Source of the DNA: a virus
Lineage: Duplodnaviria > Heunggongvirae > Uroviricota > Caudoviricetes
Direction: 5' to 3' (one strand)
Length of the DNA: 41,166 nt
IMG/VR virus record: IMGVR_UViG_3300028886_000031
Coordinates: 280,485-321,650 of that record
The notes beneath the pieces are model-generated. The model was not told where the DNA came from and made no database searches. It saw only the letters and a list, made by a program, of their open reading frames with translations. Every line of letters begins with the position of its first letter. Position 1 is the first letter of the stretch. A program made the translations under genes and the position numbers. Shown piece by piece: positions 7,109-41,002 of this stretch.

Positions 7109-7804
7109 ATGAGAAAAATTGTAAATACAAATATATACAGAAGCTATATTTTTCATGGTAGACTTGGAAATATATGCTATCAGTTATGTCATTTGATGAA
7201 TTTTATAGATAAAAATCATCAAAAATTGGAAAAACTTGTTCTAGATTTAAATTATTCGGATGTATCTCCTTATCATACAACATCTCAATATGTTATTAGA
7301 GATAATCTACCATTCTTTAATTATTTTTCTAATAATTTAAGGGATGATTTTGATCTTATTAAAAATAAACTTATTTATTATAAAGCGTATTATGAACCTT
7401 TAGTTGTTAAACCAGAATATGCTTATAAAATATTTTATAACAAAGAATTATATTCTCCAATAATAGAAAAGTATCCAGATATTTCTAATTATATATCTAT
7501 ACATATAAGACGAACAGACTTTTTTAATTATTGCCCAAGATGCATAGCAAAAAAAGATACTGTTAAAAAAATTATAGACAAGTATCCAAAAGTTATGATT
7601 TTTAGCGATGATATGGATTATTGTGCGAAAAATTTTACAGATTCTAATGTTAGTTTAATTCATAATAAAGAAGAATATAATGATATAATTATGATGTCTC
7701 TAACATCTAAGATATATAATCTTAGTTATAGCACGTTTAGTAATTTTGCCATCAAATTAAAAGATGGTATAGAACAATCACAGACTAAACTTAATAAACA
7801 ATAA
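7109..7804 (+). CDS. GT11 family glycosyltransferase (alpha-1,2-fucosyltransferase-like)
   Basis: GRLGN, SIHIRRTDF, IFSDDMDY, DIIMMS and YSTFS match the GT11 motif series. Confidence 0.8.
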   Translation: MRKIVNTNIYRSYIFHGRLGNICYQLCHLMNFIDKNHQKLEKLVLDLNYSDVSPYHTTSQYVIRDNLPFFNYFSNNLRDDFDLIKNKLIYYKAYYEPLVVKPEYAYKIFYNKELYSPIIEKYPDISNYISIHIRRTDFFNYCPRCIAKKDTVKKIIDKYPKVMIFSDDMDYCAKNFTDSNVSLIHNKEEYNDIIMMSLTSKIYNLSYSTFSNFAIKLKDGIEQSQTKLNKQ

Positions 7805-7808
7805 ATAC

Positions 7809-7866
7809 GGGCCGATAGTGATAGCGGTAGCACTTCTGCTTTGTACGCAGAGAGTAGGGTTCGAAT
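7809..7866 (+). pseudogene. 5' fragment of an Ala-like tRNA (anticodon reads TGT), broken at the T-loop
   Basis: GGGCCGA acceptor 5' strand, D-arm, TCTGC-TTTGTAC-GCAGA anticodon arm, GGTTCGAAT; no 3' T-stem, acceptor strand or CCA follows. Confidence 0.75.
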
Positions 7867-7886
7867 TTACCTTCTTGTGTCATTTT

Positions 7887-7964
7887 TGTAGATTGACAAC
7901 ATGATGTCTAACATGGTAGGAAAAACATCTAACCGTCTTTTCCTATGTCAATCTACACTTTTTT
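7887..7964 (+). terminator. Branched hairpin plus T6 upstream of the HNH gene
   Basis: GTAGATTGACA/TGTCAATCTAC outer stem, TAGGAAAA/TTTTCCTA inner stem, then T-run. Confidence 0.6.
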
Positions 7965-7967
7965 ACT

Positions 7968-7981
7968 CGAATAAAATTAAA
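7968..7981 (+). promoter_or_regulatory. Candidate late promoter
   Basis: CGAATAAAATTAAA, identical to 28427-28440; starts 46 nt upstream of the HNH ATG. Confidence 0.55.
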
Positions 7982-8013
7982 TTAGACAATTTTTATTAAA
8001 GGTTAGAATTTTT

Positions 8014-8913
8014 ATGGATAATAATTCAATTCATTATTGTAAGAATTGTGGTGAAAAATTTTATAATGATAAAAGTGATTTTTGCAGTAAACATTGTGCA
8101 TGTGGATATAATCCTATTATAACTAAAATGTGTCCATATTGTAAACAAGAATTTACAATCAAAAAGAAAAAATTTGCTGCACATGTCAAATATTGTACAC
8201 AAAATCCAAAAAGAATAGAAATAGATAAAAATTTAAAGAAAACTGGCGCAGAAACAATTGATAAAAAATATGGATTATTTAAAGAATTTATTGTAAAATG
8301 CCATGTATGTGGAACGAAATTTACTGTAATAGAAAGAGAGAAATTATTTCCACAAAAAGAACGATATTATTGTAGTGACGAATGTGGAAAAAAATATGCC
8401 AATTCTTGCATGAATCATGATACATTCCAAAAAATATCAAATACACTAAGATCTAGATATAATAAAAAGCCAAGAATATGTCCAGTTTGTAAAAAAGAAT
8501 TTACAGGCAATAGAAAATGTTGTTCTGATAAATGTAGAAAGTTTTATATTCATGAATCTTATGATAGAAGTCATCTTATTAAAAGAAGTCAATTAGAATT
8601 ATATCGATCAAAATGTGATTTTCATTTTTCTTTAAGAGATTATCCAGACGAATTTAATTTCGATTTAATTAAACAATATGGATGGTATAAAGCAAAAAAT
8701 CATGGAGATAATTTGAATGGCGTATCTCGTGATCATATGTATAGTATTAAAGAAGGTTTTGTGAATAATGTTGATCCAAAAATTATGTCACATCCAGCAA
8801 ATTGTAAATTATTAAGGCATTCAGATAATGTTCGTAAAAATTCAAAAAGTAGTATCACATTACAACAATTACTAGAAAGAATAGATGCTTGGGATAAAAA
8901 ATATAATAAATGA
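8014..8913 (+). CDS. Free-standing HNH homing endonuclease with multiple CxxC zinc-binding repeats
   Basis: Several CxxC pairs; C-terminal SRDH...HPANC...SDNVRK fits an HNH core; location inside a tRNA cluster. Confidence 0.75.
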   Translation: MDNNSIHYCKNCGEKFYNDKSDFCSKHCACGYNPIITKMCPYCKQEFTIKKKKFAAHVKYCTQNPKRIEIDKNLKKTGAETIDKKYGLFKEFIVKCHVCGTKFTVIEREKLFPQKERYYCSDECGKKYANSCMNHDTFQKISNTLRSRYNKKPRICPVCKKEFTGNRKCCSDKCRKFYIHESYDRSHLIKRSQLELYRSKCDFHFSLRDYPDEFNFDLIKQYGWYKAKNHGDNLNGVSRDHMYSIKEGFVNNVDPKIMSHPANCKLLRHSDNVRKNSKSSITLQQLLERIDAWDKKYNK

Positions 8914-8923
8914 TAAATATTTT

Positions 8924-9014: not shown

Positions 9015-9016
9015 TA

Positions 9017-9211: not shown

Positions 9212-9215
9212 ATTT

Positions 9216-9409: not shown

Positions 9410-9444
9410 CTAAAAAATTAAAATTTAGAACATAATAATGTTAT

Positions 9445-11772
9445 ATGAAACTAAGCAACAGTTTTCGCGGATTAAGAAGACATAAAAATTATGTAGAAAA
9501 TTTAGGGAATAAGAGAGAGAAAGTTTTACAGAAATTAGATAAGAATTATCCATCTAAAATCATTAAAAGTGATATTAAAAAAGTTACAAAAGAGAAAAAA
9601 AGACAAAAAAATACTTTTAAAATCATCAAAAAAACAACAGAAGATAAATCAGAACATAAAAGTATCCCAAGTTTTAAAGAAAAACAAATTCCATATATTA
9701 GTTTTATAATAGCTTTTTATAACAACGCACCATATATAGAAAGATGTATCAATTCCATTCTTAATCAAACAGTTAAAAATATAGAAATCATACTTGTTAA
9801 TGATGGATCTACAGATAATGTAGAACCAATTCTGGAAACATATAGAGAAAAATATTCAAACATTAAAGTTATTAACCAAGAGAATAAAGGTGTTTCTGCT
9901 GCCAGAAATATCGGTATTAAAAATTCTAATGGCTTATACCTAGCATTTATCGATGGGGATGATTACATTACTCCTGATATGTCTGAATATTTATTAGACA
10001 GATGTTTAAAATATAATTTAGATGCTTGTTATTTCGATTTTAAATTCATAGATGTTTCTACAAATAAAATCCTAAAAGCTGCTTATCACTTTAAAAATTT
10101 TTTATCGGAATTTAAATTTGAAAAAGTAATTTCCACATATGACATAAAACTAGATATTTTATGTAGTAGTATGGCTATGGGAATATATAAAAGAAAAATT
10201 TTTATAGACAATAACATCACATTCAATGAAGAAGTTGAATTTGGCGAAGATTTTTTAGTAAAATTTGACTATTTTTATTTATATAAAAGAATAATGTTTG
10301 TAAATAAAGAGTTCTATATTTATTGCAGAAATAGAAATGATAGTGCTACAACTACAATTAACAGGCATATAGATAGAATTATTGTATTTTTAAATAATAT
10401 TATAAAAATGTATTTAAGACATCTAATCAATGATTCTAGAAATAATAGTCAATATATCAATCTTATTTTACGTGAAATAACACATTACGTCAGAATACTT
10501 AAATGTCAAAAAACTGATGAATGGTGTCAAAACAATCTTTATTTAATAGATCCAGATCTAATTCTAAATAATGATATTAATCCGCTATATATAGATAGAT
10601 TAAAGAATATTATAGATCTTAAAAGATTTAATAATCTATATGATAAGATATCTTTTTATAGATCCAAATTAAAAAAGTCATATTATATTATTACTGGTCA
10701 ATTAAATTCTACAGAGAATGAATCTATAGATTCTTGGTTATTTTTTAAATACTTAAGACAAAATAATATAGATTCCATATATGTCTGTTGGAAAAATCAT
10801 AAATCGTATGCCGAATATAAGAAATTATATCCAGAATATGTTATCGGAATGAATGGTAATTGTGTTACAGATGAGGAGTTCTTTAGTTCTAGATTATTTC
10901 CATATATTGTCAGGTCAAAATTTTTAATTCAAGAAAATTCAGCTTTAAATTCTAATATAGAAAAATATATTTATAACTGTAAAGATTTTTGTAGAGTATT
11001 CTTGGGTCATGGAATAACTGTAAGTAATGATATTAATTATTTAAAATTTTTAGATATTTATAATGTATCATCCGATAATGAAAAGAAAATTGTAAAAGAA
11101 GCCGTTACACATACAAAATTGAATAACAGTAACTTTATTGTCGCTGGTTTACCAAGATATGATTACTTAAAAGATGAGTATGATAGTCAAAGAAAATACG
11201 CATTCATAATGTTCACATGGAGATATACATTTACAGATTCACTTAAAATTCAGAGCAGTGATTATTTAAAGAATATACTTAATCTTGTAAACGAAGATAA
11301 TATTAATAAGTTAAAATCTAATGGAATTACTCCTATATTATGTATACATCATCATATATTAAATAAACTTAAACTCAAATTAAACTTAGATAACGTTATT
11401 ATACCAGAATCGACACAAATCTCTAGTTATATTAGAAAATCATTTGTATGTGTTACAGATTACTCAAGTGTTAACTATGATTTTAGATTCTTAAATAAAC
11501 CTGTGATTTTTTGGACTCCAGATTTGAATAGTTCTAAATTATCTAACGTAGATCTTCAAAAACAGTCCATTTGTATAAAAAGATTAAGTATTTTTAACGA
11601 TACTGTTACAGATATAGATTCTGTAATCCATAAAATCATATATTACTCAAAGAATCCGTATTTATCAAAAGATAAGATTATTTTGAATAATTCTTTCTTT
11701 AAATATAGAAAAAATATTTCAGAACATTTATATAATGGATTAGAGAGAATGTATTCTCAATTAAAAAATTAG
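9445..11772 (+). CDS. GT2 glycosyltransferase fused to a CDP-glycerol glycerophosphotransferase (TagF-like) domain
   Basis: GT2: SFIIAFYN, EIILVNDGSTD, GVSAARNIG, FIDGDD. TagF-like: FLGHGI, GLPRYD, FTWR, TDYSSVNYDF..LNKPVIF. Confidence 0.85.
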   Translation: MKLSNSFRGLRRHKNYVENLGNKREKVLQKLDKNYPSKIIKSDIKKVTKEKKRQKNTFKIIKKTTEDKSEHKSIPSFKEKQIPYISFIIAFYNNAPYIERCINSILNQTVKNIEIILVNDGSTDNVEPILETYREKYSNIKVINQENKGVSAARNIGIKNSNGLYLAFIDGDDYITPDMSEYLLDRCLKYNLDACYFDFKFIDVSTNKILKAAYHFKNFLSEFKFEKVISTYDIKLDILCSSMAMGIYKRKIFIDNNITFNEEVEFGEDFLVKFDYFYLYKRIMFVNKEFYIYCRNRNDSATTTINRHIDRIIVFLNNIIKMYLRHLINDSRNNSQYINLILREITHYVRILKCQKTDEWCQNNLYLIDPDLILNNDINPLYIDRLKNIIDLKRFNNLYDKISFYRSKLKKSYYIITGQLNSTENESIDSWLFFKYLRQNNIDSIYVCWKNHKSYAEYKKLYPEYVIGMNGNCVTDEEFFSSRLFPYIVRSKFLIQENSALNSNIEKYIYNCKDFCRVFLGHGITVSNDINYLKFLDIYNVSSDNEKKIVKEAVTHTKLNNSNFIVAGLPRYDYLKDEYDSQRKYAFIMFTWRYTFTDSLKIQSSDYLKNILNLVNEDNINKLKSNGITPILCIHHHILNKLKLKLNLDNVIIPESTQISSYIRKSFVCVTDYSSVNYDFRFLNKPVIFWTPDLNSSKLSNVDLQKQSICIKRLSIFNDTVTDIDSVIHKIIYYSKNPYLSKDKIILNNSFFKYRKNISEHLYNGLERMYSQLKN

Positions 11773-13320: not shown

Positions 13321-15033
13321 TTATTGAAAACCATTAAATAGTTTTTTAATGTTGAGCTTGTTTCTTATCTCGTTAAAAAATAAAAATCCTTTTAAAGTAT
13401 TTGTTCTGACATGATTGCATCCTTTCTGTGGTGTAAAATCCTGTCCTATATGAACTTTGTTTTTTGAATTTAACCAGAAATCTGATACTGTAATATCAGA
13501 ATAAGATTTTAATCCATGTCCATAAATACAATTTTCACATCTATCTAATCTATTTTTAAAAACAAAACTATTAAAATACTCAACATTGTAATTTAAAACG
13601 ATGTTATTATCTAATGTAACACGTATTCCATTGACAGTATGATTATATCTAAAATCTATATCTTTTATAGCTCTGTGATATTTATCTTTAATATATTGTA
13701 CAAATTCTTTTAATCTTTGAGGTTTTGAAAAACCACGACATTTAAAATCAACAAGTAAAAGATTGTTATAATCTTTATTTAAATATTTTTTAAGCATATA
13801 AATTTGACATGGTGAACCTATATATAATATATTTATACCATTTTCTAGTTTTTCTTTAATATCTCTAAACTTTGGAAGAAATGAAAAATTATACTTGCTT
13901 TTAGATAAATATCTAAAATAATCATCCATGTTATCTACTGGTTTTATAATAACTTTTGTAAAATCTTCATTATAGGATCCTCCATAGACTATGTAATTAT
14001 TATCTATGGCATATCTAGCTAACTCAGCACAAACACCGCCAGATGTAGACTTGTCATGGATACCTTTATCCTTTGAGTAACATGCGTAATTAAACACACA
14101 AGAATTTTTAAAATAGTTTAACGCCCTCTCTTGTTCATATTTTATATACTTCTGGATTTCATCAAAATTTTCTATAATCCCACCATTATATTTTACATGT
14201 AAAATATCTATAAGATTCATTATTCTATAATTATTCTCAAACTCAATATCTTTTTTCTGGAATATAATAGAAAATGAGAATCCATGGAAACTACAAGTTG
14301 TTATTTTTCGACAATGATGTACAAGCCAAAGAAATTCACCGTATCCAATTTTATTACTTTGTATGGGATTATTAAAATAAAGATGATATGTTCTTGTTCC
14401 ATCTTTATTTGTCGTAAAATGAGATTCATCATTTTTACTTTTACTTCTCATATAGCAAAAATCAAATACTTCATTATCATTTATAAATTCTGGTTTTTTC
14501 TCTATATTTGTCCAGAAATCTATGTCCCATAAGAATACAGGATCTATATTATATGTGCTATTTTCGATTTTGTTATATGATATTGATTCTTTTTCTCTAA
14601 ACGATATATATTTAAAATATTTGGACACGAATTTTTTATATTGTCCTAACTTTAAACAATCACTAGCGGCATATGTTATAAAATGCTTCTCACCACATTT
14701 GACTAATGTTCTTCCACATAAAAAATCTTTAACATGTGACCCCATCCATTTATTGTCTAAATTAAAAACTTGATCACTTCCAATGACATATAAGTCAAAA
14801 CCAGTGAATGTTTTCGTATCATCTAAATTTATAGATATTGGTTTTAAAAATTTAGATTCTAAAGCACTATTTTTTACAGGCACTAGTCTTTTTTTGTATC
14901 CCATTGCATATACGAATGTGTATATATCATCTGTTTTATAAATATTTTTTAGATACTGAACCAGTGCTATATTTTGGAGTCTCTGCCCATAATTATTACC
15001 ATAAGTATAATGGGTGATAACAGCAATTCTCAT
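13321..15033 (-). CDS. Polysaccharide pyruvyltransferase domain fused to an F420-hydrogenase beta-subunit-like (FrhB/FdhB) domain
   Basis: N-half NYGQRLQNIAL, IGSDQVF, SFHG..FSIIF; C-half STSGG, SKY, IGSPCQI, DFKCRG, RCENC, SDIT.SDFW. Confidence 0.8.
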   Translation of the reverse strand: MRIAVITHYTYGNNYGQRLQNIALVQYLKNIYKTDDIYTFVYAMGYKKRLVPVKNSALESKFLKPISINLDDTKTFTGFDLYVIGSDQVFNLDNKWMGSHVKDFLCGRTLVKCGEKHFITYAASDCLKLGQYKKFVSKYFKYISFREKESISYNKIENSTYNIDPVFLWDIDFWTNIEKKPEFINDNEVFDFCYMRSKSKNDESHFTTNKDGTRTYHLYFNNPIQSNKIGYGEFLWLVHHCRKITTCSFHGFSFSIIFQKKDIEFENNYRIMNLIDILHVKYNGGIIENFDEIQKYIKYEQERALNYFKNSCVFNYACYSKDKGIHDKSTSGGVCAELARYAIDNNYIVYGGSYNEDFTKVIIKPVDNMDDYFRYLSKSKYNFSFLPKFRDIKEKLENGINILYIGSPCQIYMLKKYLNKDYNNLLLVDFKCRGFSKPQRLKEFVQYIKDKYHRAIKDIDFRYNHTVNGIRVTLDNNIVLNYNVEYFNSFVFKNRLDRCENCIYGHGLKSYSDITVSDFWLNSKNKVHIGQDFTPQKGCNHVRTNTLKGFLFFNEIRNKLNIKKLFNGFQ

Positions 15034-15094
15034 AGATTTTAAATATATTATATATTTTAATTTTTTAGTAGAATAAAAAAAAGAATTCTATTTA

Positions 15095-15207
15095 ATGGAG
15101 AGAGTGAAATATGAAGAGATATAAAAAAATTATGTGATGCTGTATATCTACATAGAACAGAAAACATTTCTACAACAGATATTAAAAAGAAGATGAAAGA
15201 AACATAG
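15095..15207 (+). pseudogene. tagD: Remnant C-terminus of glycerol-3-phosphate cytidylyltransferase (TagD-like)
   Basis: 15115-15207 reads RDIKKLCDAVYLHRTENISTTDIKKKMKET*, matching the TagD tail (CEVVYLPRTEGISTTKIK); in-frame TGA and frame breaks just upstream; no HxGH N-terminus. Confidence 0.7.
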
Positions 15208-16768: not shown

Positions 16769-17236
16769 ATGGCAGAAACAACAGTTAAAATGACAGTGAA
16801 GGACATTGTCAACAAACTTATCGCTGATGAATGGATTGCTGAGTTCACATATTGTCATATGGCATATGTCCTTAAAGGAACAGCTAGAGATTCTGTTGAA
16901 AAAGGATTTAGACATATTGCAGAAGAGGAAAAGCATCACAAAGAAGAATTAATTACATGGATGCAATCAAAAGGTTATCCAGTAATTCTTAATCCAGTTC
17001 AAATGCTTGGAAATTGCAATCCATCTGGTAAATTCAATCCTTTCCAAGATCCAACTCAGACGGTCGATGCTCTTAAAGCACAGATTAAGTCTGAAATTAA
17101 CGCTAAGAATATGTATACATTGTATTATTCCGCTGTTAAGAATTTATACCCAGATCTAGCTTTCAAGTTTATGCACATAGCAAACGAAGAAGCTGAACAC
17201 AGAGTGGAGTTAGAAGATTTGCTATCTCAAGTTTAA
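16769..17236 (+). CDS. Ferritin-like diiron four-helix-bundle protein
   Basis: DE...Y, EEEKHH, SE...Y and EEAEH form paired ExxH diiron ligands. Confidence 0.85.
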   Translation: MAETTVKMTVKDIVNKLIADEWIAEFTYCHMAYVLKGTARDSVEKGFRHIAEEEKHHKEELITWMQSKGYPVILNPVQMLGNCNPSGKFNPFQDPTQTVDALKAQIKSEINAKNMYTLYYSAVKNLYPDLAFKFMHIANEEAEHRVELEDLLSQV

Positions 17237-17237
17237 T

Positions 17238-31706: not shown

Positions 31707-33203
31707 ATGGGTATTAAAACACTACTCAAAGAGGCTTATAACTTTACTAAGTCTAGTACAGGTTATGATCCTTCTAAGCCGGGCAGTATTCGTGAAGTCC
31801 TTGTGAATGACGATGCGTTCGGAATGTACAAAAATTCACTCTCAGAAGGTTTGTCTGCAGAGGATAAGAATGGATTCAATGTTCTTGCTGAGAATACAAG
31901 AATTGCACTTCTTGAAAACTCGACATATTCTTTGAACCCATATGAGACTCTTGCACTTCCACTTCTCCGTGTATTCTATCCAAAGACAATCGCTAAGGAT
32001 CTCGTTACCGTTATTCCAATGAGCAAGCCAGAAATCATCCGTGGTTTCATCAAGGCTTCCTTCAAGCGCTTTGGTGACAGCAATACTTATATGGCTCCAT
32101 CTAACACAGATATCACAGCTGGTCCAAAGGTGACTGTTCCTGTCAGTACAATGACAGAGCTTACACCTGATGGCAAGCCAATTGATATTCTTGCAAAGGC
32201 TGGTGTCAATTCTGATATTGCTCACATCGAGAAGAACTTCATGGTTACAGCCGTTGAACTCGATGGCGAGACTGTTAACTGCCAGGTTACACCAACCGTT
32301 GACGGAACAATTGCAGCTACAGTTCAGAAGGCTGATGGATCTGTAACAGATACACTTACTGGTCGTATCAATTATCTCACTGGCATTCTCGAACTTGCTA
32401 GTGTCAATGGTAAGATCACAAAGGTTGCTTTCAAGGCACAGCTCTCACTCGAAGAGAACACAATTAACCCTCGTGCTTCCTTCAGTATTGAGAAGATCCG
32501 CTTGATTGCACAGGATCGTCAGATCTCCACAAACTGGACAATTCAGATGCAGCAAGATATCAAGGCACTCTATGATATCGAGCTTCAGTCCGAACTCGTT
32601 TCAGCTATGGGTCAGCAAATCGTTCTTGATGTCGATCGTCAGATCGTCCAGAACCTTATCTACGCTTGCGAGAGAATGAATGGTCCAACACACAACCGTA
32701 CATTCAACAAGAACCCATCACAATGGGAAGCTGAGACTGGTTCTAAGTTTGCTTATGGTCCAAAGCAATGGATGGAGAATGTTCTTCCTGTTCTTAACGA
32801 TCTTAGTGCTGCAATTTATGTAGATACTAACATCGCTGCAGGTAACATTCTTGCTTGCAACCCACTTGATGCTACAATCTTTGAGTCCCTCCAGGAGTTC
32901 CGTTATAATGGTTCTTCTTCTGAGGATGGTGATCTCGGATATCGTAGTGCTGAGGTTGCTGGTGGAAAGTGGAAGGTTCTTGTCTCTCCAGTTGTCCCAC
33001 AGGGCAAGTCACTCTGCCTTTACAAGCCAACTGAGCAGATCAAGTGCACATACATCTTTGCACCATACGTTCCTTGCGTGTTGACACCATACCCACTTGG
33101 CAATACACCTTCTCTCACAATTCTCTCAAGAAATGGTGAGCAGTTGATTCGTCCAGCTGGTATCTCTGTGCTTAATATCACAGATAAGTTCGTTCAACCA
33201 TAA
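31707..33203 (+). CDS. Major capsid protein, T4 gp23-like
   Basis: LPLLRVFYPKTIAKDLVTVIPM, R.I...WT..MQQDI.A...IE...EL.......DVDR, C-terminal FAPYVP; GAGG SD; strongly biased high-expression codon usage. Confidence 0.85.
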   Translation: MGIKTLLKEAYNFTKSSTGYDPSKPGSIREVLVNDDAFGMYKNSLSEGLSAEDKNGFNVLAENTRIALLENSTYSLNPYETLALPLLRVFYPKTIAKDLVTVIPMSKPEIIRGFIKASFKRFGDSNTYMAPSNTDITAGPKVTVPVSTMTELTPDGKPIDILAKAGVNSDIAHIEKNFMVTAVELDGETVNCQVTPTVDGTIAATVQKADGSVTDTLTGRINYLTGILELASVNGKITKVAFKAQLSLEENTINPRASFSIEKIRLIAQDRQISTNWTIQMQQDIKALYDIELQSELVSAMGQQIVLDVDRQIVQNLIYACERMNGPTHNRTFNKNPSQWEAETGSKFAYGPKQWMENVLPVLNDLSAAIYVDTNIAAGNILACNPLDATIFESLQEFRYNGSSSEDGDLGYRSAEVAGGKWKVLVSPVVPQGKSLCLYKPTEQIKCTYIFAPYVPCVLTPYPLGNTPSLTILSRNGEQLIRPAGISVLNITDKFVQP

Positions 33204-33226
33204 TTAGATTCTAATATCTAATTAGA

Positions 33227-33262
33227 TTAAGGCATGGCTGTTTAAATACAGCCATGCTTTAA
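33227..33262. terminator. Bidirectional terminator/stabiliser between the capsid gene and the convergent GT operon
   Basis: TTAAGGCATGGCTGT/ACAGCCATGCTTTAA stem; second AT hairpin TAATTAGAT/ATCTAATTA at 33201-33224. Confidence 0.8.
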
Positions 33263-33275
33263 TTACCGAAAAATT

Positions 33276-33920
33276 TTATTTCCATTCTAAAGCTTTGAAA
33301 TGAAGTAAGTATTCATTTTTCATGCAATATTTTGGATCAAAGTCATTTATACAATTAAAAAAGTTCGATCTATTCTTTTCGAACCCTAGAGGTATCTGTT
33401 TATTATATATCTTGTTATTTTTAAACACAGTACATTCTATATTCGAAGCATTTTCATGAGAATACTTATTCTTTTCCGAACCCATGAAATAAATATCTGA
33501 CCATTTACATTTCCTATTATTAATATCTACACTAAGAGTCTTAAAACATCTTTTAGATAATAACTTATTATCAAATGGTTTAATTGGATAAGTATCACAG
33601 TCTAAATAAATACCGCCATATTTATTAATAAGGTGTATTCTAAATACATCAGTAAACCATATATCTCTAGCTTTTTTACTATGAGACAAATTCTGTCTCT
33701 TCCATTCTTTATTATAAAGTTTATAATATGATGAGTTTACATCTTTTAGTTTTTCTTTAGTTTCAATAACATCAGCATTATTACTTCCAAATAATTGCGG
33801 AATATGTACTAATTCAATATCAAAACCATCATTCATTTTTTTAAAAGCATCCATTGAAAAATAAACATACTTTGGTATGTCTCTTCCAATCCAAATGAAG
33901 AACAGTTTCTTAGGAATCAT
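33276..33920 (-). CDS. GT32 family glycosyltransferase
   Basis: MIPKKLFFIWIG; TDVFR..LI.KYGGIYLDCDT; YLLH-x5-W. Confidence 0.85.
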   Translation of the reverse strand: MIPKKLFFIWIGRDIPKYVYFSMDAFKKMNDGFDIELVHIPQLFGSNNADVIETKEKLKDVNSSYYKLYNKEWKRQNLSHSKKARDIWFTDVFRIHLINKYGGIYLDCDTYPIKPFDNKLLSKRCFKTLSVDINNRKCKWSDIYFMGSEKNKYSHENASNIECTVFKNNKIYNKQIPLGFEKNRSNFFNCINDFDPKYCMKNEYLLHFKALEWK

Positions 33921-34614
33921 ATTCTTTTAATCCATCTTTAAAGCATTGAGATATATTTGAATTTTTAAAATATCTAATTCTGTCTTTTGCCATAAATTGA
34001 CAATGTTTACAGACAGTATTTGTAACTATATTATCATAGGAATCTATTGTCATTACATCTTTCAGACTTCTAAATAATATATCTTGTTTTTGTAACATTT
34101 GTGCTACAAAAATTTGGTTACTACAATGTGAATATATAAATTCATTATTTATTTTGCATATAGATACACCACAATTTAATCCACAATCTTTTTTTAACTC
34201 CTGGTTATTTTCTGTGGGAGATATATAAAAATTAAAGTGAGTATACTTCTTTTTATTCATATTATTTAAATTATTAAAAGTATAATATTTAATTCCCATA
34301 GATTCTATTATATCTTTATATTTTGAATTATTGCTTGAATTTGTAGAAACTTCAAGTTTTGTATTCAAATTATCTTTAAGATATCTACATATATCTACAA
34401 AATAAGGATTTGTTGTTGGTTCACCACCTATAATTGTAACATGCTCAAATTTATCACTTCCGATATCATTAATTTCACTCGTGATATATTTAATATCATT
34501 TATATCCATGACGCTGTTCGGATTTTTTTGTTTAATATTGCATAGTCTTACACAGCATGGACATTTCCAGTTACATTCCAACGTGATATTTAATTCTATC
34601 CATTTTTTTGTCAT
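33910..34614 (-). CDS. Radical SAM protein
   Basis: CNWKCPCC (CxxxCxxC), IIGGEPT, STN; extra C-terminal Cys (CGLNC, CSN, CKHC). Confidence 0.85.
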   Translation of the reverse strand: MTKKWIELNITLECNWKCPCCVRLCNIKQKNPNSVMDINDIKYITSEINDIGSDKFEHVTIIGGEPTTNPYFVDICRYLKDNLNTKLEVSTNSSNNSKYKDIIESMGIKYYTFNNLNNMNKKKYTHFNFYISPTENNQELKKDCGLNCGVSICKINNEFIYSHCSNQIFVAQMLQKQDILFRSLKDVMTIDSYDNIVTNTVCKHCQFMAKDRIRYFKNSNISQCFKDGLKEYDS

Positions 34615-35315
34615 GTTGATTCTACCTTCATTAATATTTTATCATATTTACATATAGGTGTACGATTCGTTTTCCACGTTCTATCAACAAAATGTTCTAT
34701 ATAACTTTCTGTGTTCTCACTTCTATCTTTTAATTTACAATCAAAGAACAATTTCTTTCTCCATTCCCATTCTGGATGGTATTTTCCTGGTTTATAAAAA
34801 CCTACATTAAATGTATTAAATATACCAAAACAATCGTATATAGGATGTTCATTTCTCTCTTTCCCGACAAAGAAATTATCTCTATACCTATGCTCTGGAT
34901 CATAAGAAGGAAAAGCATAACTACAAAAAGACTTATTTTTTAAAAGAAAAGTATCAAATGGTTTTACAGGATATGTATCACAGTCTAGATAGATTCCACC
35001 ATAATGATTTAATATTTCAAATCTCAACATATTAGCTACGGTCTGTATAAATTTTCTCAAACATCTATAGAATTGACTTACATGATGTCTAAAAATTTTA
35101 TCCGATTTTTTGAGTATGTATGATACACAGTTTCTGACATGAACATCATATATAGATTTTTGTAAACTTTCTATATTCTCTATTTCTTCTACGGAGTATT
35201 CTATTAAATCTACTTGGAAATCTGGATTAACTTCTTTAAAAGCATTAATTGCATAATCTACGTAATCCGGTTTATTGTCACCTAACCAAATAAAAAATAA
35301 ATTCTTAGGTATCAT
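34611..35315 (-). CDS. GT32 family glycosyltransferase
   Basis: MIPKNLFFIWLG (start set at 35315); YGGIYLDCDT; YIEH-x5-W. Confidence 0.85.
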   Translation of the reverse strand: MIPKNLFFIWLGDNKPDYVDYAINAFKEVNPDFQVDLIEYSVEEIENIESLQKSIYDVHVRNCVSYILKKSDKIFRHHVSQFYRCLRKFIQTVANMLRFEILNHYGGIYLDCDTYPVKPFDTFLLKNKSFCSYAFPSYDPEHRYRDNFFVGKERNEHPIYDCFGIFNTFNVGFYKPGKYHPEWEWRKKLFFDCKLKDRSENTESYIEHFVDRTWKTNRTPICKYDKILMKVEST

Positions 35316-35997
35316 AAATCTCCTTATCATATTTACATAAAGGCGTTAATATGTCTTTATGTTTTCTTTTTTGCCATGTTCTATCTTCAAAGTGTTCTAT
35401 ATAATATTCTGACTCTAAATTCTCTATATACTTTAATCTACATTCGTAGAATCTTTTTCTTCTTATATACCATTTATTTTTCGGTAATATTCTTTCAATA
35501 TTATAAACTCTATCAAATTTATAATCAGATTTATAGATGCCAGGAGAACAGCCTAGAAAAAAACAATCCTTAGGCCATGGATCGTTTATGTTATGTACAC
35601 AGAAATTTTCATTGTTTAATAACTCATCATCAAATGGTTTAATTGGAAATGTATCACAATCCAGATAAATACCACCATACGTATTAATGATTTTAAGTCG
35701 AAAAATATTAGCTAATATTTGTATAAATCTTCTCTTACTATATGTTGTATACGCTATAATAGACTTTTTATAGAGAATATTTTTCTTCGGATTATCCTTG
35801 TTCAATATATAATAAATACATTCTTTAATTTCCTTATCGTACTTCTTATTGCTTGGTTCTTCTATATCTCTAATTGTTTTGTGTATTAACTCTACATTAA
35901 AATCTGGATTAGCTTCTTTGAACGCACTAATTGCGAAATCTACATAGTTTGGTTTGTTATCGCCAAACCAAATAAACCATATTCTTTTAGGTATCAT
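35305..35997 (-). CDS. GT32 family glycosyltransferase
   Basis: MIPKRIWFIWFG; YGGIYLDCDT; YIEH-x5-W. Confidence 0.85.
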   Translation of the reverse strand: MIPKRIWFIWFGDNKPNYVDFAISAFKEANPDFNVELIHKTIRDIEEPSNKKYDKEIKECIYYILNKDNPKKNILYKKSIIAYTTYSKRRFIQILANIFRLKIINTYGGIYLDCDTFPIKPFDDELLNNENFCVHNINDPWPKDCFFLGCSPGIYKSDYKFDRVYNIERILPKNKWYIRRKRFYECRLKYIENLESEYYIEHFEDRTWQKRKHKDILTPLCKYDKEIYDT

Positions 35998-36701
35998 TAT
36001 ATTTTATGTCTCGTTTTTAGATAAAAATTGATATACTTAGCACATTTAGAAAATGAAGAATATGGACTATAACTTACAGATTTACACATTGTCATAATTA
36101 TCCATTCTTCGTAACATCTTAATTTTTTTTCTAAGTAGAATATTTTATTATCATTTAAATTTTTCTTGCACCATTCTATATCATCACTGAATATAATACA
36201 ATTTCCATTGATTTTTTGTAATCTTTTAGTTATAGATTTTTTTGTCTGGAAAAATTTTCCATTATAAGCATGTATAAAATCTTTTCTTCTAATATGGACA
36301 GCATAATAATTTTTTAAATTAAAATTTGTTTTAGATCTAATTTTTTCCCATAAATCATTATTATAAAAGATTGTACTAAAAATACATATCTGTTTATATT
36401 GTTTTGGCATAGAAAAATTAAATCCTTTGAATGTTACAGTATCTCCATGAAACTTCTCATTGTTTTTTATAGATGTTTTATATAATAGATTATAAGTATC
36501 TTTATCATACGAGAATTTGTCGTATATATTTACAAAAAAATCTCTTATGTAAGAAAAATAATTATGTTTAATGGTTAAGCCATTCTTATAGAAAAAAATC
36601 TTATCATAATCAATTTTATATCTGTTACAATAATTATAAACTGTATATATAGCTAATAATATATTACCAAATCTACCGCCCATACCTAGATAGCTAACCA
36701 T
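35997..36701 (-). CDS. GT11 family glycosyltransferase
   Basis: GGRFGN, AVHIRRKDF, IFSDDIEWC, MTMC, SSFS. Confidence 0.8.
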   Translation of the reverse strand: MVSYLGMGGRFGNILLAIYTVYNYCNRYKIDYDKIFFYKNGLTIKHNYFSYIRDFFVNIYDKFSYDKDTYNLLYKTSIKNNEKFHGDTVTFKGFNFSMPKQYKQICIFSTIFYNNDLWEKIRSKTNFNLKNYYAVHIRRKDFIHAYNGKFFQTKKSITKRLQKINGNCIIFSDDIEWCKKNLNDNKIFYLEKKLRCYEEWIIMTMCKSVSYSPYSSFSKCAKYINFYLKTRHKI

Positions 36702-36711
36702 ATATTTTCAT

Positions 36712-37335
36712 TTACTTTCTATCATACTTACATAAAGGCGTTCTTAAATTATTAGGATTCCATGTAAAATCATGATAATGATTTATGTAATAGAAATTTG
36801 GATCTCCATAATATTCACCATATTTTAAAGTACAATTATAAAATTTATCACGTAACACATTGTAATCACCACACTCTGTATGTGGATATAGAAATACATT
36901 ATTGTGCTTTTTACTCTTTTTTAATTCTTCTAGACTTATTGTTCCAATGAAGAAAACATCCCGAACACAGAATTGATTCTTGCCCCATGAAATTAATACA
37001 TCGAACTTATCATGGTTTAGAAGTTTATCATCAAATGGTCTAACCGGAAATGTATCACAATCCAAATAGATTCCGCCATATTTCTCTAAAAGCTTATATC
37101 TATAAATATTAGCAACACTCTGAATGAATTTTCTATCTTTCCTATTTTCTTTAATGGCTGAGTCTACACTAGATCTAAGAATTGGATCTATTGGGTTTTC
37201 TATATCATTTATTTTCCATTCAATAAGATCGATTTTAAAATTTGGATTAACTTCCTTAAATGTATTGACGGAAAAATCTACATAATTTGGTTTATTATCA
37301 CCTAGCCATATAAAAAAAATTTGTTTAGGAATCAT
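36712..37335 (-). CDS. GT32 family glycosyltransferase
   Basis: MIPKQIFFIWLG (start set at 37335); YGGIYLDCDT; YINH-x5-W. Confidence 0.85.
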   Translation of the reverse strand: MIPKQIFFIWLGDNKPNYVDFSVNTFKEVNPNFKIDLIEWKINDIENPIDPILRSSVDSAIKENRKDRKFIQSVANIYRYKLLEKYGGIYLDCDTFPVRPFDDKLLNHDKFDVLISWGKNQFCVRDVFFIGTISLEELKKSKKHNNVFLYPHTECGDYNVLRDKFYNCTLKYGEYYGDPNFYYINHYHDFTWNPNNLRTPLCKYDRK

Positions 37336-37339
37336 AGAT

Positions 37340-38026
37340 CTACCCACGCATTCTCTTACATATTGAAAGATTTAAACACATTGGAGTAATGTTTTCTTTA
37401 TATAATAAATATTGCATATATATTTGATCCCCTCCATTATTTCTTAATCCAGGCGTTTTTTTATATGGAATTTCACAAATTTTTGGATAATCTTCATTCA
37501 TCATATTTTTCCATTTTGTTATGAAATCTAAACTAAAACTATTATTTTTTAGACATATGAATGTTGCTTGATAGTGTGGAAATTTATTTAGGAAAGTATT
37601 ATCTACATTATACTTATTTTTAAATTCATTTGTACACACTATTTTAATTGGACAGAAATTAAGCGGTGGTCGAAGACATAATAGTAAATAATTGCTATTG
37701 TAAAAATTATCCAATTCTTTATCTACATCTAAGAGATATTTTCCATCCTTTTCAAAATCGCATCCAGCATCAAAATATACTAGTAGATCTATATCTTTTG
37801 ATAATTTTTGTAATTCCTGGTTTATTATATATGGTTTCCAAATATAGTTATGAAAACCTCTATTGACTTTCTTCTGTTTTAAAATAAAATTTTTAAAATG
37901 CTCATCCTCTATATCATGTTCATTGAATATATTCAATTTCTTATTAACAGCATCAAACTCACTTAATAATCTCGGTTTAAACTTTTTCCAATTAGATGTA
38001 GCAAATGTTATATATTTTACTTTCAT
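37340..38026 (-). CDS. Unassigned GT-A-like nucleotide-sugar transferase
   Basis: RGF..YIWKPYII, LVYFDAG and GDQ motifs resemble small GT-A proteins of polysaccharide loci; coupled within the GT operon. Confidence 0.6.
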   Translation of the reverse strand: MKVKYITFATSNWKKFKPRLLSEFDAVNKKLNIFNEHDIEDEHFKNFILKQKKVNRGFHNYIWKPYIINQELQKLSKDIDLLVYFDAGCDFEKDGKYLLDVDKELDNFYNSNYLLLCLRPPLNFCPIKIVCTNEFKNKYNVDNTFLNKFPHYQATFICLKNNSFSLDFITKWKNMMNEDYPKICEIPYKKTPGLRNNGGDQIYMQYLLYKENITPMCLNLSICKRMRG

Positions 38027-38036
38027 AATTTTATCC

Positions 38037-38660
38037 TTAATATTTAAAGGTTCTTAACCAGTAGTGATCTATATAATGTATATTTGGGTCATTAAAATGA
38101 TCACCATATTTTAATGTACAATTATAGAATTTTGTACATAAATCCATATACTTTTCATTTTTATGTAAATTATTTCCATACCCACTTCTTGTTGGTAATA
38201 GACAGGATTTATCTTTACAATTTCTTTCATATCCAATAAAGAAACAATCTTTTTTATTGTTATTCTGCTGACATATGAATTTATTTTTAGATAGAAGTTC
38301 ATCATCAAATGGCTTAATTGGAAATGTATCACAATCTAGATAAATACCACCGTATAAATACAAATAAGAGAATCTTAAAGGAACAGATAATTTTATCTTA
38401 TAAACAGAATCAAATGATTTATACCTGTTATTATAATCTGGGTCCAGACTATCTTTTTTAATACAATCTATTTGCTGTGGTTTAAGAATTTTAGCAATAT
38501 TTCCTTTATAAGATTTAGAATCTTCTACATCCTGATCACTAAAATGTATAAAATCTATAATAAAACTTGGATTAACTTCTTTAAACGCATTAATTGCAAA
38601 ATCCACATAGTTTGGTTTGTTATCACCAAGCCATACAAATAATAGTCTTTTCTGTATCAT
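38037..38660 (-). CDS. GT32 family glycosyltransferase
   Basis: MIQKRLLFVWLG; LR..YLY.YGGIYLDCDT; YIDH. Confidence 0.85.
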   Translation of the reverse strand: MIQKRLLFVWLGDNKPNYVDFAINAFKEVNPSFIIDFIHFSDQDVEDSKSYKGNIAKILKPQQIDCIKKDSLDPDYNNRYKSFDSVYKIKLSVPLRFSYLYLYGGIYLDCDTFPIKPFDDELLSKNKFICQQNNNKKDCFFIGYERNCKDKSCLLPTRSGYGNNLHKNEKYMDLCTKFYNCTLKYGDHFNDPNIHYIDHYWLRTFKY

Positions 38661-39397
38661 ACATCAAAATTATAAATAAAAGTTTGTAAATGATTATTAA
38701 CAGGCTTAAATAAACTTGTTTTCAAACAACAATTATAAAAAGCCATTTTCATAGACTGATAATCTCTATCATTATAGTCTATCGGTGGAAATAAATGAAA
38801 ATCAATATTCTTCACAAAATTTGGACATACTCCAAATAGTGCCGTACTTGGACAGATGTTAAAATTCTTATTAGCCATCGAAATAAAGCATTCATGATTA
38901 AGAATTTCATCCAAAGGTCTAATACAGAAGTTTTTTAAACTACTATAAATTCCGCCATATGTATATATAAGAGTAAAATTATATTTATTTGCAAGTTTAT
39001 ACAATATAACATCATCATCTAATAATTTTAGATCTATATTATCTTGCTTAATAATTTTTTTTGTTATCTTGTCTCTTAGAAATTCACTTCTTGTAAATTG
39101 AAGAATATCTATTTTATAATTACTATTAAACTCTCTAAAGGAATTTATACAGCATCTCATATAAGATTCTTCTTCACCAAGACATACAAAGAATATATGT
39201 CTCGGAATCTTTGGTGTTTTTTTATTTAGAAATTTTATATTTTTAACACTAATTCTAGAAAAATTCTTTGGCTCTGGTTTCTGTTCTTCTTGTTTGTTTA
39301 TTTGATTTTCCATCTGATAACCAGTTTTGTCTAACAGCCATAAAAAAGTTTTTTGAAAGATTTTCTTAAACATAAGACAACATTCCATTGCTTTCAT
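38657..39397 (-). CDS. Degenerate GT32-like protein lacking DxD
   Basis: KIPRHIFFVCLG and YGGIY retained, but LDCDT is replaced by SSLKN; N-terminal extension. Confidence 0.7.
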   Translation of the reverse strand: MKAMECCLMFKKIFQKTFLWLLDKTGYQMENQINKQEEQKPEPKNFSRISVKNIKFLNKKTPKIPRHIFFVCLGEEESYMRCCINSFREFNSNYKIDILQFTRSEFLRDKITKKIIKQDNIDLKLLDDDVILYKLANKYNFTLIYTYGGIYSSLKNFCIRPLDEILNHECFISMANKNFNICPSTALFGVCPNFVKNIDFHLFPPIDYNDRDYQSMKMAFYNCCLKTSLFKPVNNHLQTFIYNFDV

Positions 39398-40208
39398 TTA
39401 ATATTTTAGATATCTGGCTAAAAAAACTCCCTGGATTTTTTATCACGGATCCACACAGGGAAAGTAGAATCATATCCTCAAAAGGTTTATTATCTCTAAT
39501 GATATTTACATTTCTATAAATTTCAAAATTATCTTCCAGCCATTTTACATCATCAGAGAATAATAAAACATTTTTATCTTTATTATCTTCAATTATTTCA
39601 ACAATATCTTGTTTTGTATACAATTTCTTATGTCTATAAAAATCTATCATACGTGATTGTACATCTTCTATCAGGACATCCGGATTTTCAATTCCTATAT
39701 AATCCTCGCGACGAATATGAATACCAATACAATTTTTGGTAAGTATATCAGAATATTTCTTCTTTAATCTGGATACTAATTTCTTAGGTCTACAAATTCT
39801 GTTTAATAAGATATAATCAAAATATGGGTCTTTTAATCTAAAAAAATCATCCAATGACCAATAATTTTTAAATATAATATCAGAATCCTTATTAAAATTA
39901 TCATTATACTTATAGAAATTATATAATAATGTTATATCAGTAAGACACTTAATATCTACCACTTCAAAATTATCGAAATAGCCTTTATCAACGTCTTTAA
40001 ATATATAATCTACATTAGAAAACATTTCCTGACAGTCATGGAATACATATTCATTTTTCTTATTTCGTAAAAGACTTTTATTTTTGTAATTGTAATCTAT
40101 AACAATTTTTCTAGATGATATATCATTATTTTGACAGAACTTAAATAATCCATAAATATAGGAAATACACTCTCCAAGTCTCCCACCATTTCCAATATAT
40201 GATAGCAT
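39366..40208 (-). CDS. GT11 family glycosyltransferase
   Basis: GGRLGE, GIHIRREDY, FSDDVKW, DMILLSLC, SFFS. Confidence 0.8.
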   Translation of the reverse strand: MLSYIGNGGRLGECISYIYGLFKFCQNNDISSRKIVIDYNYKNKSLLRNKKNEYVFHDCQEMFSNVDYIFKDVDKGYFDNFEVVDIKCLTDITLLYNFYKYNDNFNKDSDIIFKNYWSLDDFFRLKDPYFDYILLNRICRPKKLVSRLKKKYSDILTKNCIGIHIRREDYIGIENPDVLIEDVQSRMIDFYRHKKLYTKQDIVEIIEDNKDKNVLLFSDDVKWLEDNFEIYRNVNIIRDNKPFEDMILLSLCGSVIKNPGSFFSQISKILNESNGMLSYV

Positions 40209-41002
40209 TATTTTTCTCCATAGAGATAATCATCATATTCACAATATAGATCACTTTTTCTATAATCACATTGCCATTTTCTACCTGGAAAATGCATTAT
40301 ATATTGTGAATAAAAGAAATTGGACTTATATAATTTCAACTCTTTATTAAAAAACTTAGTTCTCATTTCTTTAAAATTAGAAGAGTTGTCAAAATTTCTA
40401 ATCCAAGGTGGATTTAACGGATTTTTAAAATCAGCACCAGTTGTAAATACAACATCATCTTCTGTATATTCTTTTCTTAATCCTACAAAATATATATCCG
40501 TATACGTATAGCAATGATAGTTTTGTATATTGTGTGTAAAATTTAAATCATAATATTTCGTATAGTCATCTGACAGATTTTTTACTTCAACCTTTTTATT
40601 TCTCATACATAGAACATTTTGGGAAAAACCATTATAACTTATAAGTTTATCATCGAATGGTTTAACAGGGAATGTATCACAATCTAAATAAATTCCGCCA
40701 TAATAATATAGAAGTTCAAAACGCAAGAAATCGGATAATATCTGTATAAAATTAAATTTACTTTCTATCCTCTTTGAGATATAATCATAATATTTATTTT
40801 TAACACCTTTGGTCGTTTGAAATATATATTCTTTACAGCATTTTAAAACACTATCGTTTGCATTCAAGATATCATCTATTGTATATCTTATAAACTCTAT
40901 ATTAAATTTTGGATTAATAGATTTATAAGAATTAATAGCATAATCTACATAATCCGGTTTTTTATCACCAAGCCATATAAAGAAAATTTGTTTTGCTATC
41001 AT
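40208..41002 (-). CDS. GT32 family glycosyltransferase
   Basis: MIAKQIFFIWLG; SDFLR..LL.YYGGIYLDCDT; YIMH-x5-W. Confidence 0.85.
   Translation of the reverse strand: MIAKQIFFIWLGDKKPDYVDYAINSYKSINPKFNIEFIRYTIDDILNANDSVLKCCKEYIFQTTKGVKNKYYDYISKRIESKFNFIQILSDFLRFELLYYYGGIYLDCDTFPVKPFDDKLISYNGFSQNVLCMRNKKVEVKNLSDDYTKYYDLNFTHNIQNYHCYTYTDIYFVGLRKEYTEDDVVFTTGADFKNPLNPPWIRNFDNSSNFKEMRTKFFNKELKLYKSNFFYSQYIMHFPGRKWQCDYRKSDLYCEYDDYLYGEK

Follow-up and report, generated by a model that had tools for sequence, protein, structure and literature searches.

The DNA analysed here (hereafter the window) is a stretch of 41,166 nucleotides that forms the last 41 kb of a 321,650-bp virus record (IMG/VR IMGVR_UViG_3300028886_000031, positions 280,485 to 321,650), rated 100% complete; it carries a large assemblage of genes for glycan synthesis, including an 11-gene operon that converges on the gene for a gp23-type major capsid protein. 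The first 139 bp of the contig are repeated at its own end (window 41028-41166 corresponds to contig 1-139), and an open reading frame (ORF) of 190 amino acids (aa) runs intact across the junction, with a 195-aa counterpart at the same place in a related contig, L012; the assembly is circularly closed, despite its label in IMG/VR as 'linear'. Because of this closure, absences from the whole genome carry weight in what follows. Based on Pfam profiles, compared also with NCBIfam and PHROG profiles, and on a hydropathy scan for transmembrane segments, we propose that the glycan genes of the window, along with others elsewhere in the genome, encode a self-contained, membrane-independent and soluble cytoplasmic pathway for building a complex, decorated glycan. 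The Pfam cut-offs that matter below are 23 bits for PF04488 (GT32-like glycosyltransferases), 23.9 bits for PF01531 (GT11-like) and 22.1 bits for PF04464 (TagF-like). The features of the locus are as follows.

7109..7804, plus strand: GT11-like protein (alpha-1,2-fucosyltransferase family), 231 aa; PF01531 at 32.7 bits, HIRRxD motif, no transmembrane segment
9445..11772, plus strand: fusion of a GT2 domain and a TagF-type glycerophosphotransferase, 775 aa; PF00535 at 9e-36, PF04464 at 4.7e-12 and 46 bits
11774..12433, minus strand: GT32-like paralog with intact DXD motif, 219 aa; PF04488 at 7.5e-12
13321..15033, minus strand: fusion of a polysaccharide pyruvyl transferase and an FrhB/FdhB-like domain, 570 aa; PF04230 at 3.8e-13, PF04432 at 2e-11
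15115..15207, plus strand: tagD-like remnant of 30 codons with a cytidylyltransferase-like signature (...RTENISTT...), seen in translation only
31707..33203, plus strand: major capsid protein, gp23 type, convergent with the operon; PF07068 at 1e-30
33225..33264, no strand: hairpin with a 17-bp stem between the convergent capsid gene and operon; minimum free energy -32.9 kcal/mol, z -8.4 against shuffles
33276..33920, minus strand: GT32-like 'f', 214 aa, last gene of the operon; PF04488 at 2.5e-9, dN/dS 0.063
33910..34614, minus strand: radical S-adenosylmethionine (SAM) enzyme, 234 aa, CX3CX2C; PF04055
34611..35330, minus strand: GT32-like 'e', 239 aa; PF04488 at 6.8e-13, dN/dS 0.043
35305..35997, minus strand: GT32-like 'd', 230 aa; PF04488 at 4.4e-12, nearest solved chain by sequence SetA
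35997..36701, minus strand: GT11-like 'b', 234 aa; PF01531 at 29.8 bits, HIRRxD motif
36712..37347, minus strand: GT32-like 'c', 211 aa; PF04488 at 1.7e-11
37340..38026, minus strand: protein with a predicted GT-A fold, 228 aa, of a mostly viral family (GT34/DUF1647-like); Atlas structure match, dN/dS 0.18
38037..38660, minus strand: GT32-like 'b', 207 aa; PF04488 at 1.8e-8
38657..39397, minus strand: GT32-like protein without DXD (YGGIYSSLKN), 246 aa; PF04488 at 23.4 bits (marginal), dN/dS 0.067
39366..40208, minus strand: GT11-like 'a', 280 aa; PF01531 at 31.4 bits, phrog_2644 glycosyltransferase
40208..41002, minus strand: GT32-like 'a', 264 aa, first glycan gene of the operon; PF04488 at 8.5e-12
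41026..41166, minus strand: 3' end of the 190-aa ORF that crosses the junction, LigD-3'-phosphoesterase-like and not a glycan gene

The original prediction, made from the letters of the window without database searches, had listed 13 glycosyltransferase-like ORFs (eight GT32, three GT11, the GT2-TagF fusion and one further GT-A protein), and Pfam profiles recognize twelve of these as well as the pyruvyltransferase-FrhB fusion and the radical-SAM enzyme that it had also named. The thirteenth, at 37340-38026, has no match in Pfam, NCBIfam or PHROG and is assigned by structure, its Atlas model aligning with TM-scores of 0.76-0.81 to GT-A clusters that include GT34-like proteins, DUF1647 and the N-terminal modules of giant-virus transferases. 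The GT2-TagF fusion is the sole GT2 of the genome, and its PHROG match is generic only (GtrB-like/GT). As for the tagD relic, which the original prediction had also named, its RTENISTT signature stands at the level of a motif, but the 30 codons have no hidden Markov model match and are too short for statistical support; since a relative has an intact CTP_transf_like (TagD) gene beside a GT32 gene at the equivalent position, it is plausible that the remnant derives from such a gene.

The 11 genes of the operon (33276-41002) are coupled as the original prediction described, with all junctions overlapping or no more than 10 nt apart, and the operon's stop at 33276 lies 72 nt from the convergent capsid stop at 33203, close to the 70 nt estimated at the outset. 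Between the two stops is the strong hairpin at 33225..33264, which likely serves as a bidirectional terminator. The operon had also been thought to continue beyond the window; the same-strand chain indeed does so, but with genes unrelated to glycans, namely the LigD-phosphoesterase-like ORF, which ends 24 nt before the first GT32 gene and whose 195-aa homolog in L012 has an Atlas LigD_N match of 0.93 and a TIGR02777 match at 2.7e-5, a 103-aa ORF, and a gp13-like gene. Thus delimited, the operon sits between the gp13-like virion gene (phrog_18911), which shares its strand, and the capsid gene. We then computed ratios of nonsynonymous to synonymous divergence (dN/dS) against L012, a 143-kb metagenomic contig that shares the operon and whose capsid protein is 100% identical. 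With synonymous divergence (dS) between 0.2 and 0.57, dN/dS ranges from 0.04 to 0.18 across all 11 operon genes, including the paralog that lacks the DXD motif; every gene of the operon is under strong purifying selection.

The dominant component of the system is the GT32-like family, with nine genes above the PF04488 cut-off in the genome at 23.4-50.8 bits, the 38657-39397 product being marginal. These paralogs are just 29-43% identical to one another, which suggests that they are old. The original prediction had treated all of its GT32 members as plain glycosyltransferases, and for eight of the nine genomic paralogs the alignment agrees, as they retain the DXD motif (D-C-D in YGGIYLDCDT); the 38657-39397 protein has lost it. 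This protein, which additionally carries a 60-residue N-terminal extension, is probably non-catalytic yet maintained, and may act as an adaptor or scaffold within the pathway. A search with the 'd' protein recovered only 40 homologs among 5.8 billion proteins at E<=1e-10, all of them metagenomic and many on contigs of 50-190 kb that often bear several copies, and there is no PHROG family for the group; from this distribution it appears to be essentially restricted to phages, or more precisely to large phage-like metagenomic contigs. On one such phage contig (ERZ26858453; L013:1-10726) a homolog stands at the end of a sugar-tailoring cluster that is unusually rich in radical-SAM genes (5-6 of them), with an epimerase, a DegT-like aminotransferase, a UDP-glucose dehydrogenase and a GT92-like gene. 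Among solved structures, those nearest to the family, by sequence (E ~5e-4) as well as by fold, are Legionella SetA, the TpeL/TcdB-type domains, PaTox and YeGT, to which the predicted model (mean predicted local distance difference test, pLDDT, 71) matches with a Foldseek probability of 1.0 but with TM-scores of just 0.27-0.42. All of these solved enzymes attach sugars directly to proteins.

The system is larger than the original prediction, which already considered it large, could see from the window: the whole genome has about 23 working glycan genes at five sites, with eight of them outside the window. A further pair of GT32 and GT11 genes lies at genome 217.4-218.8 kb, while genes for Gmd and Fcl lie at 204.5-208.3 kb; Gmd scores 528.7 bits against TIGR01472, whose equivalog cut-off is 415, and Fcl matches NF047922 at E 1.7e-104, under that model's strict cut-off. 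The phage is thus predicted to make its own GDP-L-fucose through Gmd and Fcl. The four GT11-like proteins of the genome score 24.8-32.7 bits against PF01531, covering only the C-terminal two-thirds of the profile, and are invariant (four of four) in HIRRxD, the HxRRxD donor motif. Because these four proteins keep the donor motif and the phage is predicted to supply the donor, fucosylation appears to be the best-supported single chemical step of the pathway.

The remaining four genes outside the window, at genome 263.6-269.2 kb and thus just before it, encode a second pyruvyl-transferase-FrhB fusion (a 558-aa paralog at genome 263586-265262), a third pyruvyl transferase, a second TagF-like protein (genome 267182-268429; PF04464 at 24.9 bits, above the cut-off) and a 601-aa fusion of a sugar/alcohol-phosphate nucleotidyltransferase with a CobD/HisC-like pyridoxal-phosphate (PLP) enzyme. 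The 601-aa fusion stands beside the TagF-like gene on the minus strand (genome 265331-268429; L007:6332-9430), and TATAAATA is found 50 nt upstream of this pair. A cognate CDP-alcohol supply of the TagD kind is missing, in that PF01467 has no match in the complete genome and only the 30-codon remnant is left; from their domains, the 601-aa fusion may produce a nucleotide-activated amino-alcohol phosphate for its TagF-like neighbour to transfer, in place of the lost TagD.

In contrast to this wealth of soluble enzymes, the usual membrane machinery of polysaccharide export is wanting. By the hydropathy scan, all of the glycan enzymes lack transmembrane segments and none of the phage's proteins exceeds five of them; the complete genome also has no match to the priming transferase families PF02397 (Bac_transf) or PF00953 (MraY/WecA), no GT4 gene, and no polymerase, ligase, oligosaccharyltransferase or full-length flippase. 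The sole multi-pass membrane protein of the phage is a 213-aa protein with five transmembrane segments (genome 177671-178312; L068:1672-2313), whose gene lies among unrelated genes, adjoining those for a serine-box protein and a metallophosphoesterase-like protein. The original prediction had noted that no flippase, polymerase or export gene was visible in the window, and this holds genome-wide, bar a single sub-threshold flippase-like match of the 213-aa protein; the search of the rest of the genome turned up Gmd and Fcl, and neither Wzx/Wzy genes above threshold nor any of the known entry enzymes of DNA glycosylation. Without membrane machinery the phage alone cannot run a lipid-linked, exported polysaccharide pathway, and therefore either a soluble cytoplasmic acceptor is glycosylated or lipid-linked intermediates of the host are tapped. 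That the pathway is cytoplasmic and directed to a complex decorated glycan, as had been proposed, is borne out by genes that are under selection, whose products are soluble and predicted to have their own GDP-fucose supply.

The radical-SAM enzyme encoded within the operon (33910-34614) has eight known homologs, and in both of the relatives whose neighbourhood was read its gene lies among glycan-decorating genes; a 48%-identical copy is flanked by those for a pyruvyl transferase, a TupA ATP-grasp protein and a methyltransferase. In addition to C14, C18 and C21 of the CX3CX2C motif it has six further invariant cysteines (144, 148, 164, 202, 205 and 224). The top Foldseek matches of its model are SpeY, BlsE and BtrN (E 1.5e-3 to 1e-2, TM-scores 0.36-0.51), and the SpeY chain 7wzv is also matched by sequence at E 0.011. 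It resembles BtrN and SpeY (PDB 4m7t, 7wzv), its best fold matches, in being a small radical-SAM protein with CX3CX2C, further conserved cysteines and a carbohydrate context; the similarity is weak (TM-score ~0.5, E 1.5e-3, 11-14% identity) and the auxiliary cluster is putative. On these structural grounds it is likely to be a twitch-type sugar dehydrogenase, and the oxidation of a sugar hydroxyl without oxygen is offered as a lead. Identification with QueE, which would have suited the presence of a QueC-type gene, was rejected, as QueE models reach only ~22 bits and both relatives read have the gene in a glycan context. A QueE-like radical-SAM gene is found elsewhere, at contig 9765-10505 (L001), as is a glutamine-amidotransferase-QueC fusion (Gat-QueC; TIGR00364, 155 bits) at genome 215383-216669 (L002:8384-9670); despite these two genes of 7-deazaguanine chemistry, the complete genome has no match to TGT/DpdA. 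We also considered a role for the enzyme as a partner of serine-box proteins, unrelated proteins that begin with a MxRNDFVSNSSSSSF block (window 2085-4725; L068:3248-3748), but this is unsupported by its gene neighbourhoods, where no link was found.

Comparison of relatives shows that the enzyme set is exchanged at the level of strains. A second relative, whose capsid protein is 98% identical, has a different set downstream of the capsid gene, comprising a GT8, a radical-SAM enzyme only 74% identical to that of our phage, an ATP-grasp TupA, a 214-aa GT32, an FkbM methyltransferase, another GT32, and proteins of 228 and 432 aa. This is the replacement of a cassette whose flanks are conserved, comparable to what is known from bacterial O-antigen and capsule loci and in keeping with the low GC content of the islands, and such swapping argues for diversifying selection on glycan structure. 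Further out, a relative with 71% capsid identity has, no more than 10 kb from its capsid gene, genes for a GT25, two GT4 proteins, a class-V aminotransferase and a CMP-sugar synthetase-like protein, and one with 67% identity has two GT4 genes at a distance of 6-10 kb. A single GT11 gene lies near the capsid gene in one relative with 69% identity, and four relatives with 51-69% identity have no glycan genes nearby.

The phage itself is an uncultured, lytic-type jumbo myovirus encoding a gp10-like baseplate protein and the anaerobic ribonucleotide reductase proteins NrdD and NrdG. Its capsid protein is no more than 26% identical to that of any phage in GenBank, the matches being phiR1-37 and AR9/PBS1-type jumbo phages, a megablast comparison with GenBank phages found no near relative of the genome, and an IMG/VR pattern scan using the capsid protein had no match. 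The best genome matches of Gmd, at no more than 65% identity, are scattered across many phyla and so are uninformative about the host. GC content is 0.31 genome-wide versus 0.23-0.26 in the glycan islands. ThyX and a thymidylate kinase are encoded, pointing to ordinary dTTP, and no integrase-type context of lysogenic conversion was seen in the annotated regions. A LAGLIDADG-type ORF between nrdD and nrdG (L002:6543-7367) is probably a homing endonuclease insertion. Genes for a rubrerythrin/ferritin-like protein and a cysteine desulfurase (window 16769-18440) adjoin the baseplate gene and are kept in a relative; they plausibly supply iron-sulfur clusters to the several radical-SAM enzymes of the phage.

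We also examined short upstream motifs. The T4-late-like TATAAAT[AG] occurs ~20 nt before the start codons of both the capsid and the gp13-like genes, and the operon strand shows no terminator-like site inside the window. A second motif, GAATAAA[TA], which differs from TATAAATA and is a candidate promoter element of the phage, is enriched ~16-fold in upstream regions and lies 25-80 nt before many virion-type genes, among them the gp10-like gene (motif at window 18578) and the gp13-like gene (motif at contig 1752). Both motifs are short and AT-rich, and neither yielded a timing class for glycan genes other than those of the main operon. Finally, CTAAAAAATTAAAAT is common to the GT2-TagF and pyruvyltransferase-FrhB genes, ending ~17 nt before their starts (window 9413-9427 and 15050-15064), and AAAAATTAAAA has only 11 occurrences in the genome; CTAAAAAATTAAAAT may be a shared promoter or regulatory site.

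Taking these observations together, we favour virion or other phage proteins as the acceptor of the glycan, with a probability of roughly 0.45. In this proposal, an alpha-hexose/fucose oligosaccharide would be put together step by step by soluble cytoplasmic enzymes, with a protein as the direct acceptor. The 214-aa GT32 'f' encoded beside the capsid gene is a candidate for the initiating enzyme, because the swapped island of the relative with the 98% identical capsid protein likewise holds a 214-aa GT32-like gene, and the variable transferases would then extend the chain. Pyruvyl ketals and phospho-alcohol groups would decorate it, and the radical-SAM enzyme might oxidize a sugar hydroxyl in an oxygen-independent manner suited to an anoxic habitat. 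The acceptor would be one or more virion proteins made at the same late time, and the outcome a glycan coat that is specific to the strain and has its analogues in chloroviruses and mimiviruses. We favour a phage-protein acceptor because of the soluble and self-sufficient design of the system and the position of its operon between two virion genes; because the operon strand is free of terminator-like sites and TATAAAT[AG] precedes the capsid and gp13-like genes; and because the nearest GT32 relatives glycosylate proteins and there are precedents in chloroviruses, mimiviruses and mycobacteriophages. A bolder version, in which the particle would bear a serotype-like variable coat on the scale of giant viruses, a fucosylated, pyruvylated and phospho-decorated oligosaccharide built directly on virion proteins by a phage-restricted, toxin-like GT-A array, with an oxygen-independent radical-SAM sugar oxidase as an adaptation to the anoxic rumen, strikes us as rather doubtful.

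Several observations weigh against a phage-protein acceptor. No acceptor was identified: the capsid protein ends in ...NITDKFVQP (SVLNITDKFVQP), which is no Ser/Thr-rich tail, and a search for such acceptors found only low-complexity Ser-rich stretches in a 4020-aa protein and its 390-aa neighbour, which nothing ties to the operon. No large island lies closer than 10 kb to the capsid gene in the relatives with 51-69% capsid identity; an island so placed is a feature of the closest relatives and not of the wider clade, and its adjacency to the capsid gene may be incidental. Late expression of the operon would follow only from short AT-rich motifs that are also frequent by chance, with seven of 146 matches preceding genes. 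The likeness of the GT32 proteins to toxins in fold is weak and lies mostly in the half that binds the nucleotide sugar. The 213-aa membrane protein matches Polysacc_synt_3, a family of the Wzx type, at 16.6 bits and E 0.005, which is sub-threshold. Furthermore, the usual substrates of TagF-type phosphotransferases and polysaccharide pyruvyl transferases are lipid-linked precursors of cell-wall and capsule polymers. Hence, of the original proposal that the glycan is built on virion proteins, the soluble pathway stands, but the acceptor itself is not established, as there is neither clade-wide adjacency to the capsid gene nor a Ser/Thr tail on the capsid protein.

The habitual substrates of these last enzymes lead to a different view, in which the phage enzymes act at the inner face of the host membrane on lipid-linked precursors of host polymers, such as teichoic acid, secondary cell-wall polymer or capsule, and the host exports the altered polymers; such a change of the cell surface during infection might, for instance, shut out superinfecting competitor phages or stop progeny from adhering to debris. 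Host surface conversion of this kind had been named as an alternative in the original prediction, and it draws on the GT2-TagF fusion, the second TagF-like protein and the three PS_pyruv_trans proteins (two of them FrhB-fused), all from families of wall and capsule polymers, on the intact TagD that a relative keeps beside GT32, and on the sub-threshold Polysacc_synt_3 match of the protein with five transmembrane segments. Strain-level cassette swapping would be equally expected from arms races over receptor masking, and a survey counts the glycosyltransferases of huge phages as envelope-associated (bioRxiv 10.64898/2026.10.24.761521). However, the complete genome has none of the priming phosphoglycosyl transferase, polymerase, ligase and full-length flippase genes that would serve such export, the GT32 array comes from a narrow family on metagenomic and largely phage-like contigs and is not host-like, and an operon placed among virion genes, with maybe a late-type promoter, would act late for a change of surface in a phage whose annotated regions have no integrase-type lysogenic-conversion context. 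We accordingly regard envelope remodelling as less likely than a phage-protein acceptor, but as a serious competitor to it. That the best PDB matches, in sequence as in fold, glycosylate target proteins could alternatively mean that the GT32-like paralogs are effectors of host takeover that mark host proteins, nine paralogs perhaps for nine targets, with the fucosyltransferases extending the marks. Yet the similarities to toxins are weak, the paralogs share an operon with chain-extending and decorating enzymes and are served by a dedicated GDP-fucose supply, which speaks for the building of an oligosaccharide, and a place beside late virion genes is unfit for an early function; we consider this quite improbable.

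The poorest prospect, and in our estimate a very slim one, is the hypermodification of DNA that the original prediction had also entertained, whereby the transferases would glycosylate a modified base to evade restriction. Phage GT-A enzymes can glycosylate DNA (bioRxiv 10.1101/2023.12.21.572611), diversity of glycans between close strains is known for T-even phages, and the Gat-QueC gene lies 0.7 kb from the extra GT32 and GT11 pair. The described routes, however, start from a hydroxylated base made by a ThyA homolog or by a C5-methyltransferase with a 5mYOX dioxygenase, and pyruvyl, TagF-type and fucosyl enzymes are not among the described DNA pathways (bioRxiv 10.1101/2023.12.21.572611; PMC13326640). 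The complete genome has no match to PF00303, PF12851, PF00145 or PF01702 (ThyA, Tet/JBP dioxygenase, C5-methyltransferase and TGT/DpdA, respectively), and for want of any such base-modifying entry gene DNA is an unlikely target; moreover, the ThyX and thymidylate kinase genes point to ordinary dTTP, and dioxygenases need O2 whereas the phage carries the anaerobic NrdD/NrdG.

Returning to phage proteins as the acceptor, a close parallel is with the chloroviruses, in which autonomous cytoplasmic glycosylation of the capsid protein (Vp54 of PBCV-1) involves viral GMD/GMER and soluble viral glycosyltransferases (PMC5408694). Our phage likewise encodes a GDP-mannose 4,6-dehydratase and a GDP-fucose synthase as well as several soluble transferases, has no usual membrane pathway, and is implied to use fucose; it differs in being a tailed bacteriophage of an anaerobe, with a GT32-like array together with GT11 and a strain-swapped cassette, and is known here from its genes alone. 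The fibrils of Mimivirus bear a pyruvylated glycan (PMC8456856), and the fibril glycans of Mimivirus and the Megavirinae are built by a large, clade-specific gene set with bacterial-like decorated sugars (PMC8456856, PMC10117803). A large gene set and decorated sugars are shared with our phage, where pyruvylation would follow from the three PS_pyruv_trans genes; in contrast, these giant viruses are eukaryotic ones, carry polysaccharides on their fibril proteins and use different enzymes. Among phages, the mycobacteriophages Che8, Corndog and Myrna have glycans on the capsid and the tail tube (Freeman et al. 2023, as related in PMC12619734), and by the same account their systems have a few transferases, with the C-terminal tails of capsid and tail-tube proteins as acceptors (PMC12619734). 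The soluble, phage-encoded glycosyltransferases among virion genes, a placement not kept in distant relatives of our phage, and the proposed glycan shield on the particle are points in common, whereas our phage has a capsid protein without an acceptor tail, ~23 genes with their own sugar-nucleotide supply, and a putative rumen habitat where antibody pressure is not an obvious driver. With bacterial O-antigen, capsule and teichoic-acid loci the system shares decoration families (TagF, CsaB-type) and a low-GC, hypervariable and cassette-like organization between conserved flanks; unlike the bacterial Wzx/Wzy or ABC loci, it has no priming transferase, flippase, polymerase or ligase, and its dominant GT32-like family is phage-restricted.

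The general kind of system, phage glycosylation genes among virion genes, is therefore already known from the mycobacteriophages. What appears to set this variant apart, as judged from its genes, is its scale of ~23 genes, its own GDP-fucose pathway, a tandem array of phage-restricted GT32-like proteins with a conserved pseudo-enzyme, a glycan-linked radical-SAM enzyme, and the swapping of cassettes between strains whose capsid proteins are 98-100% identical. Whatever the target of the glycan, the locus offers an unstudied, phage-restricted family of small GT-A enzymes with a DXD-less paralog kept by selection, and a small radical-SAM enzyme, linked to glycan tailoring, that has no PHROG family or close solved structure. 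If the glycan is on the particle, self-glycosylation would extend beyond giant eukaryotic viruses and a few actinobacteriophages to reach the jumbo phages of the gut and rumen. In that case phage particles would carry swappable surface glycotypes, with a bearing on adhesion, stability, predation and recognition in gut ecosystems.

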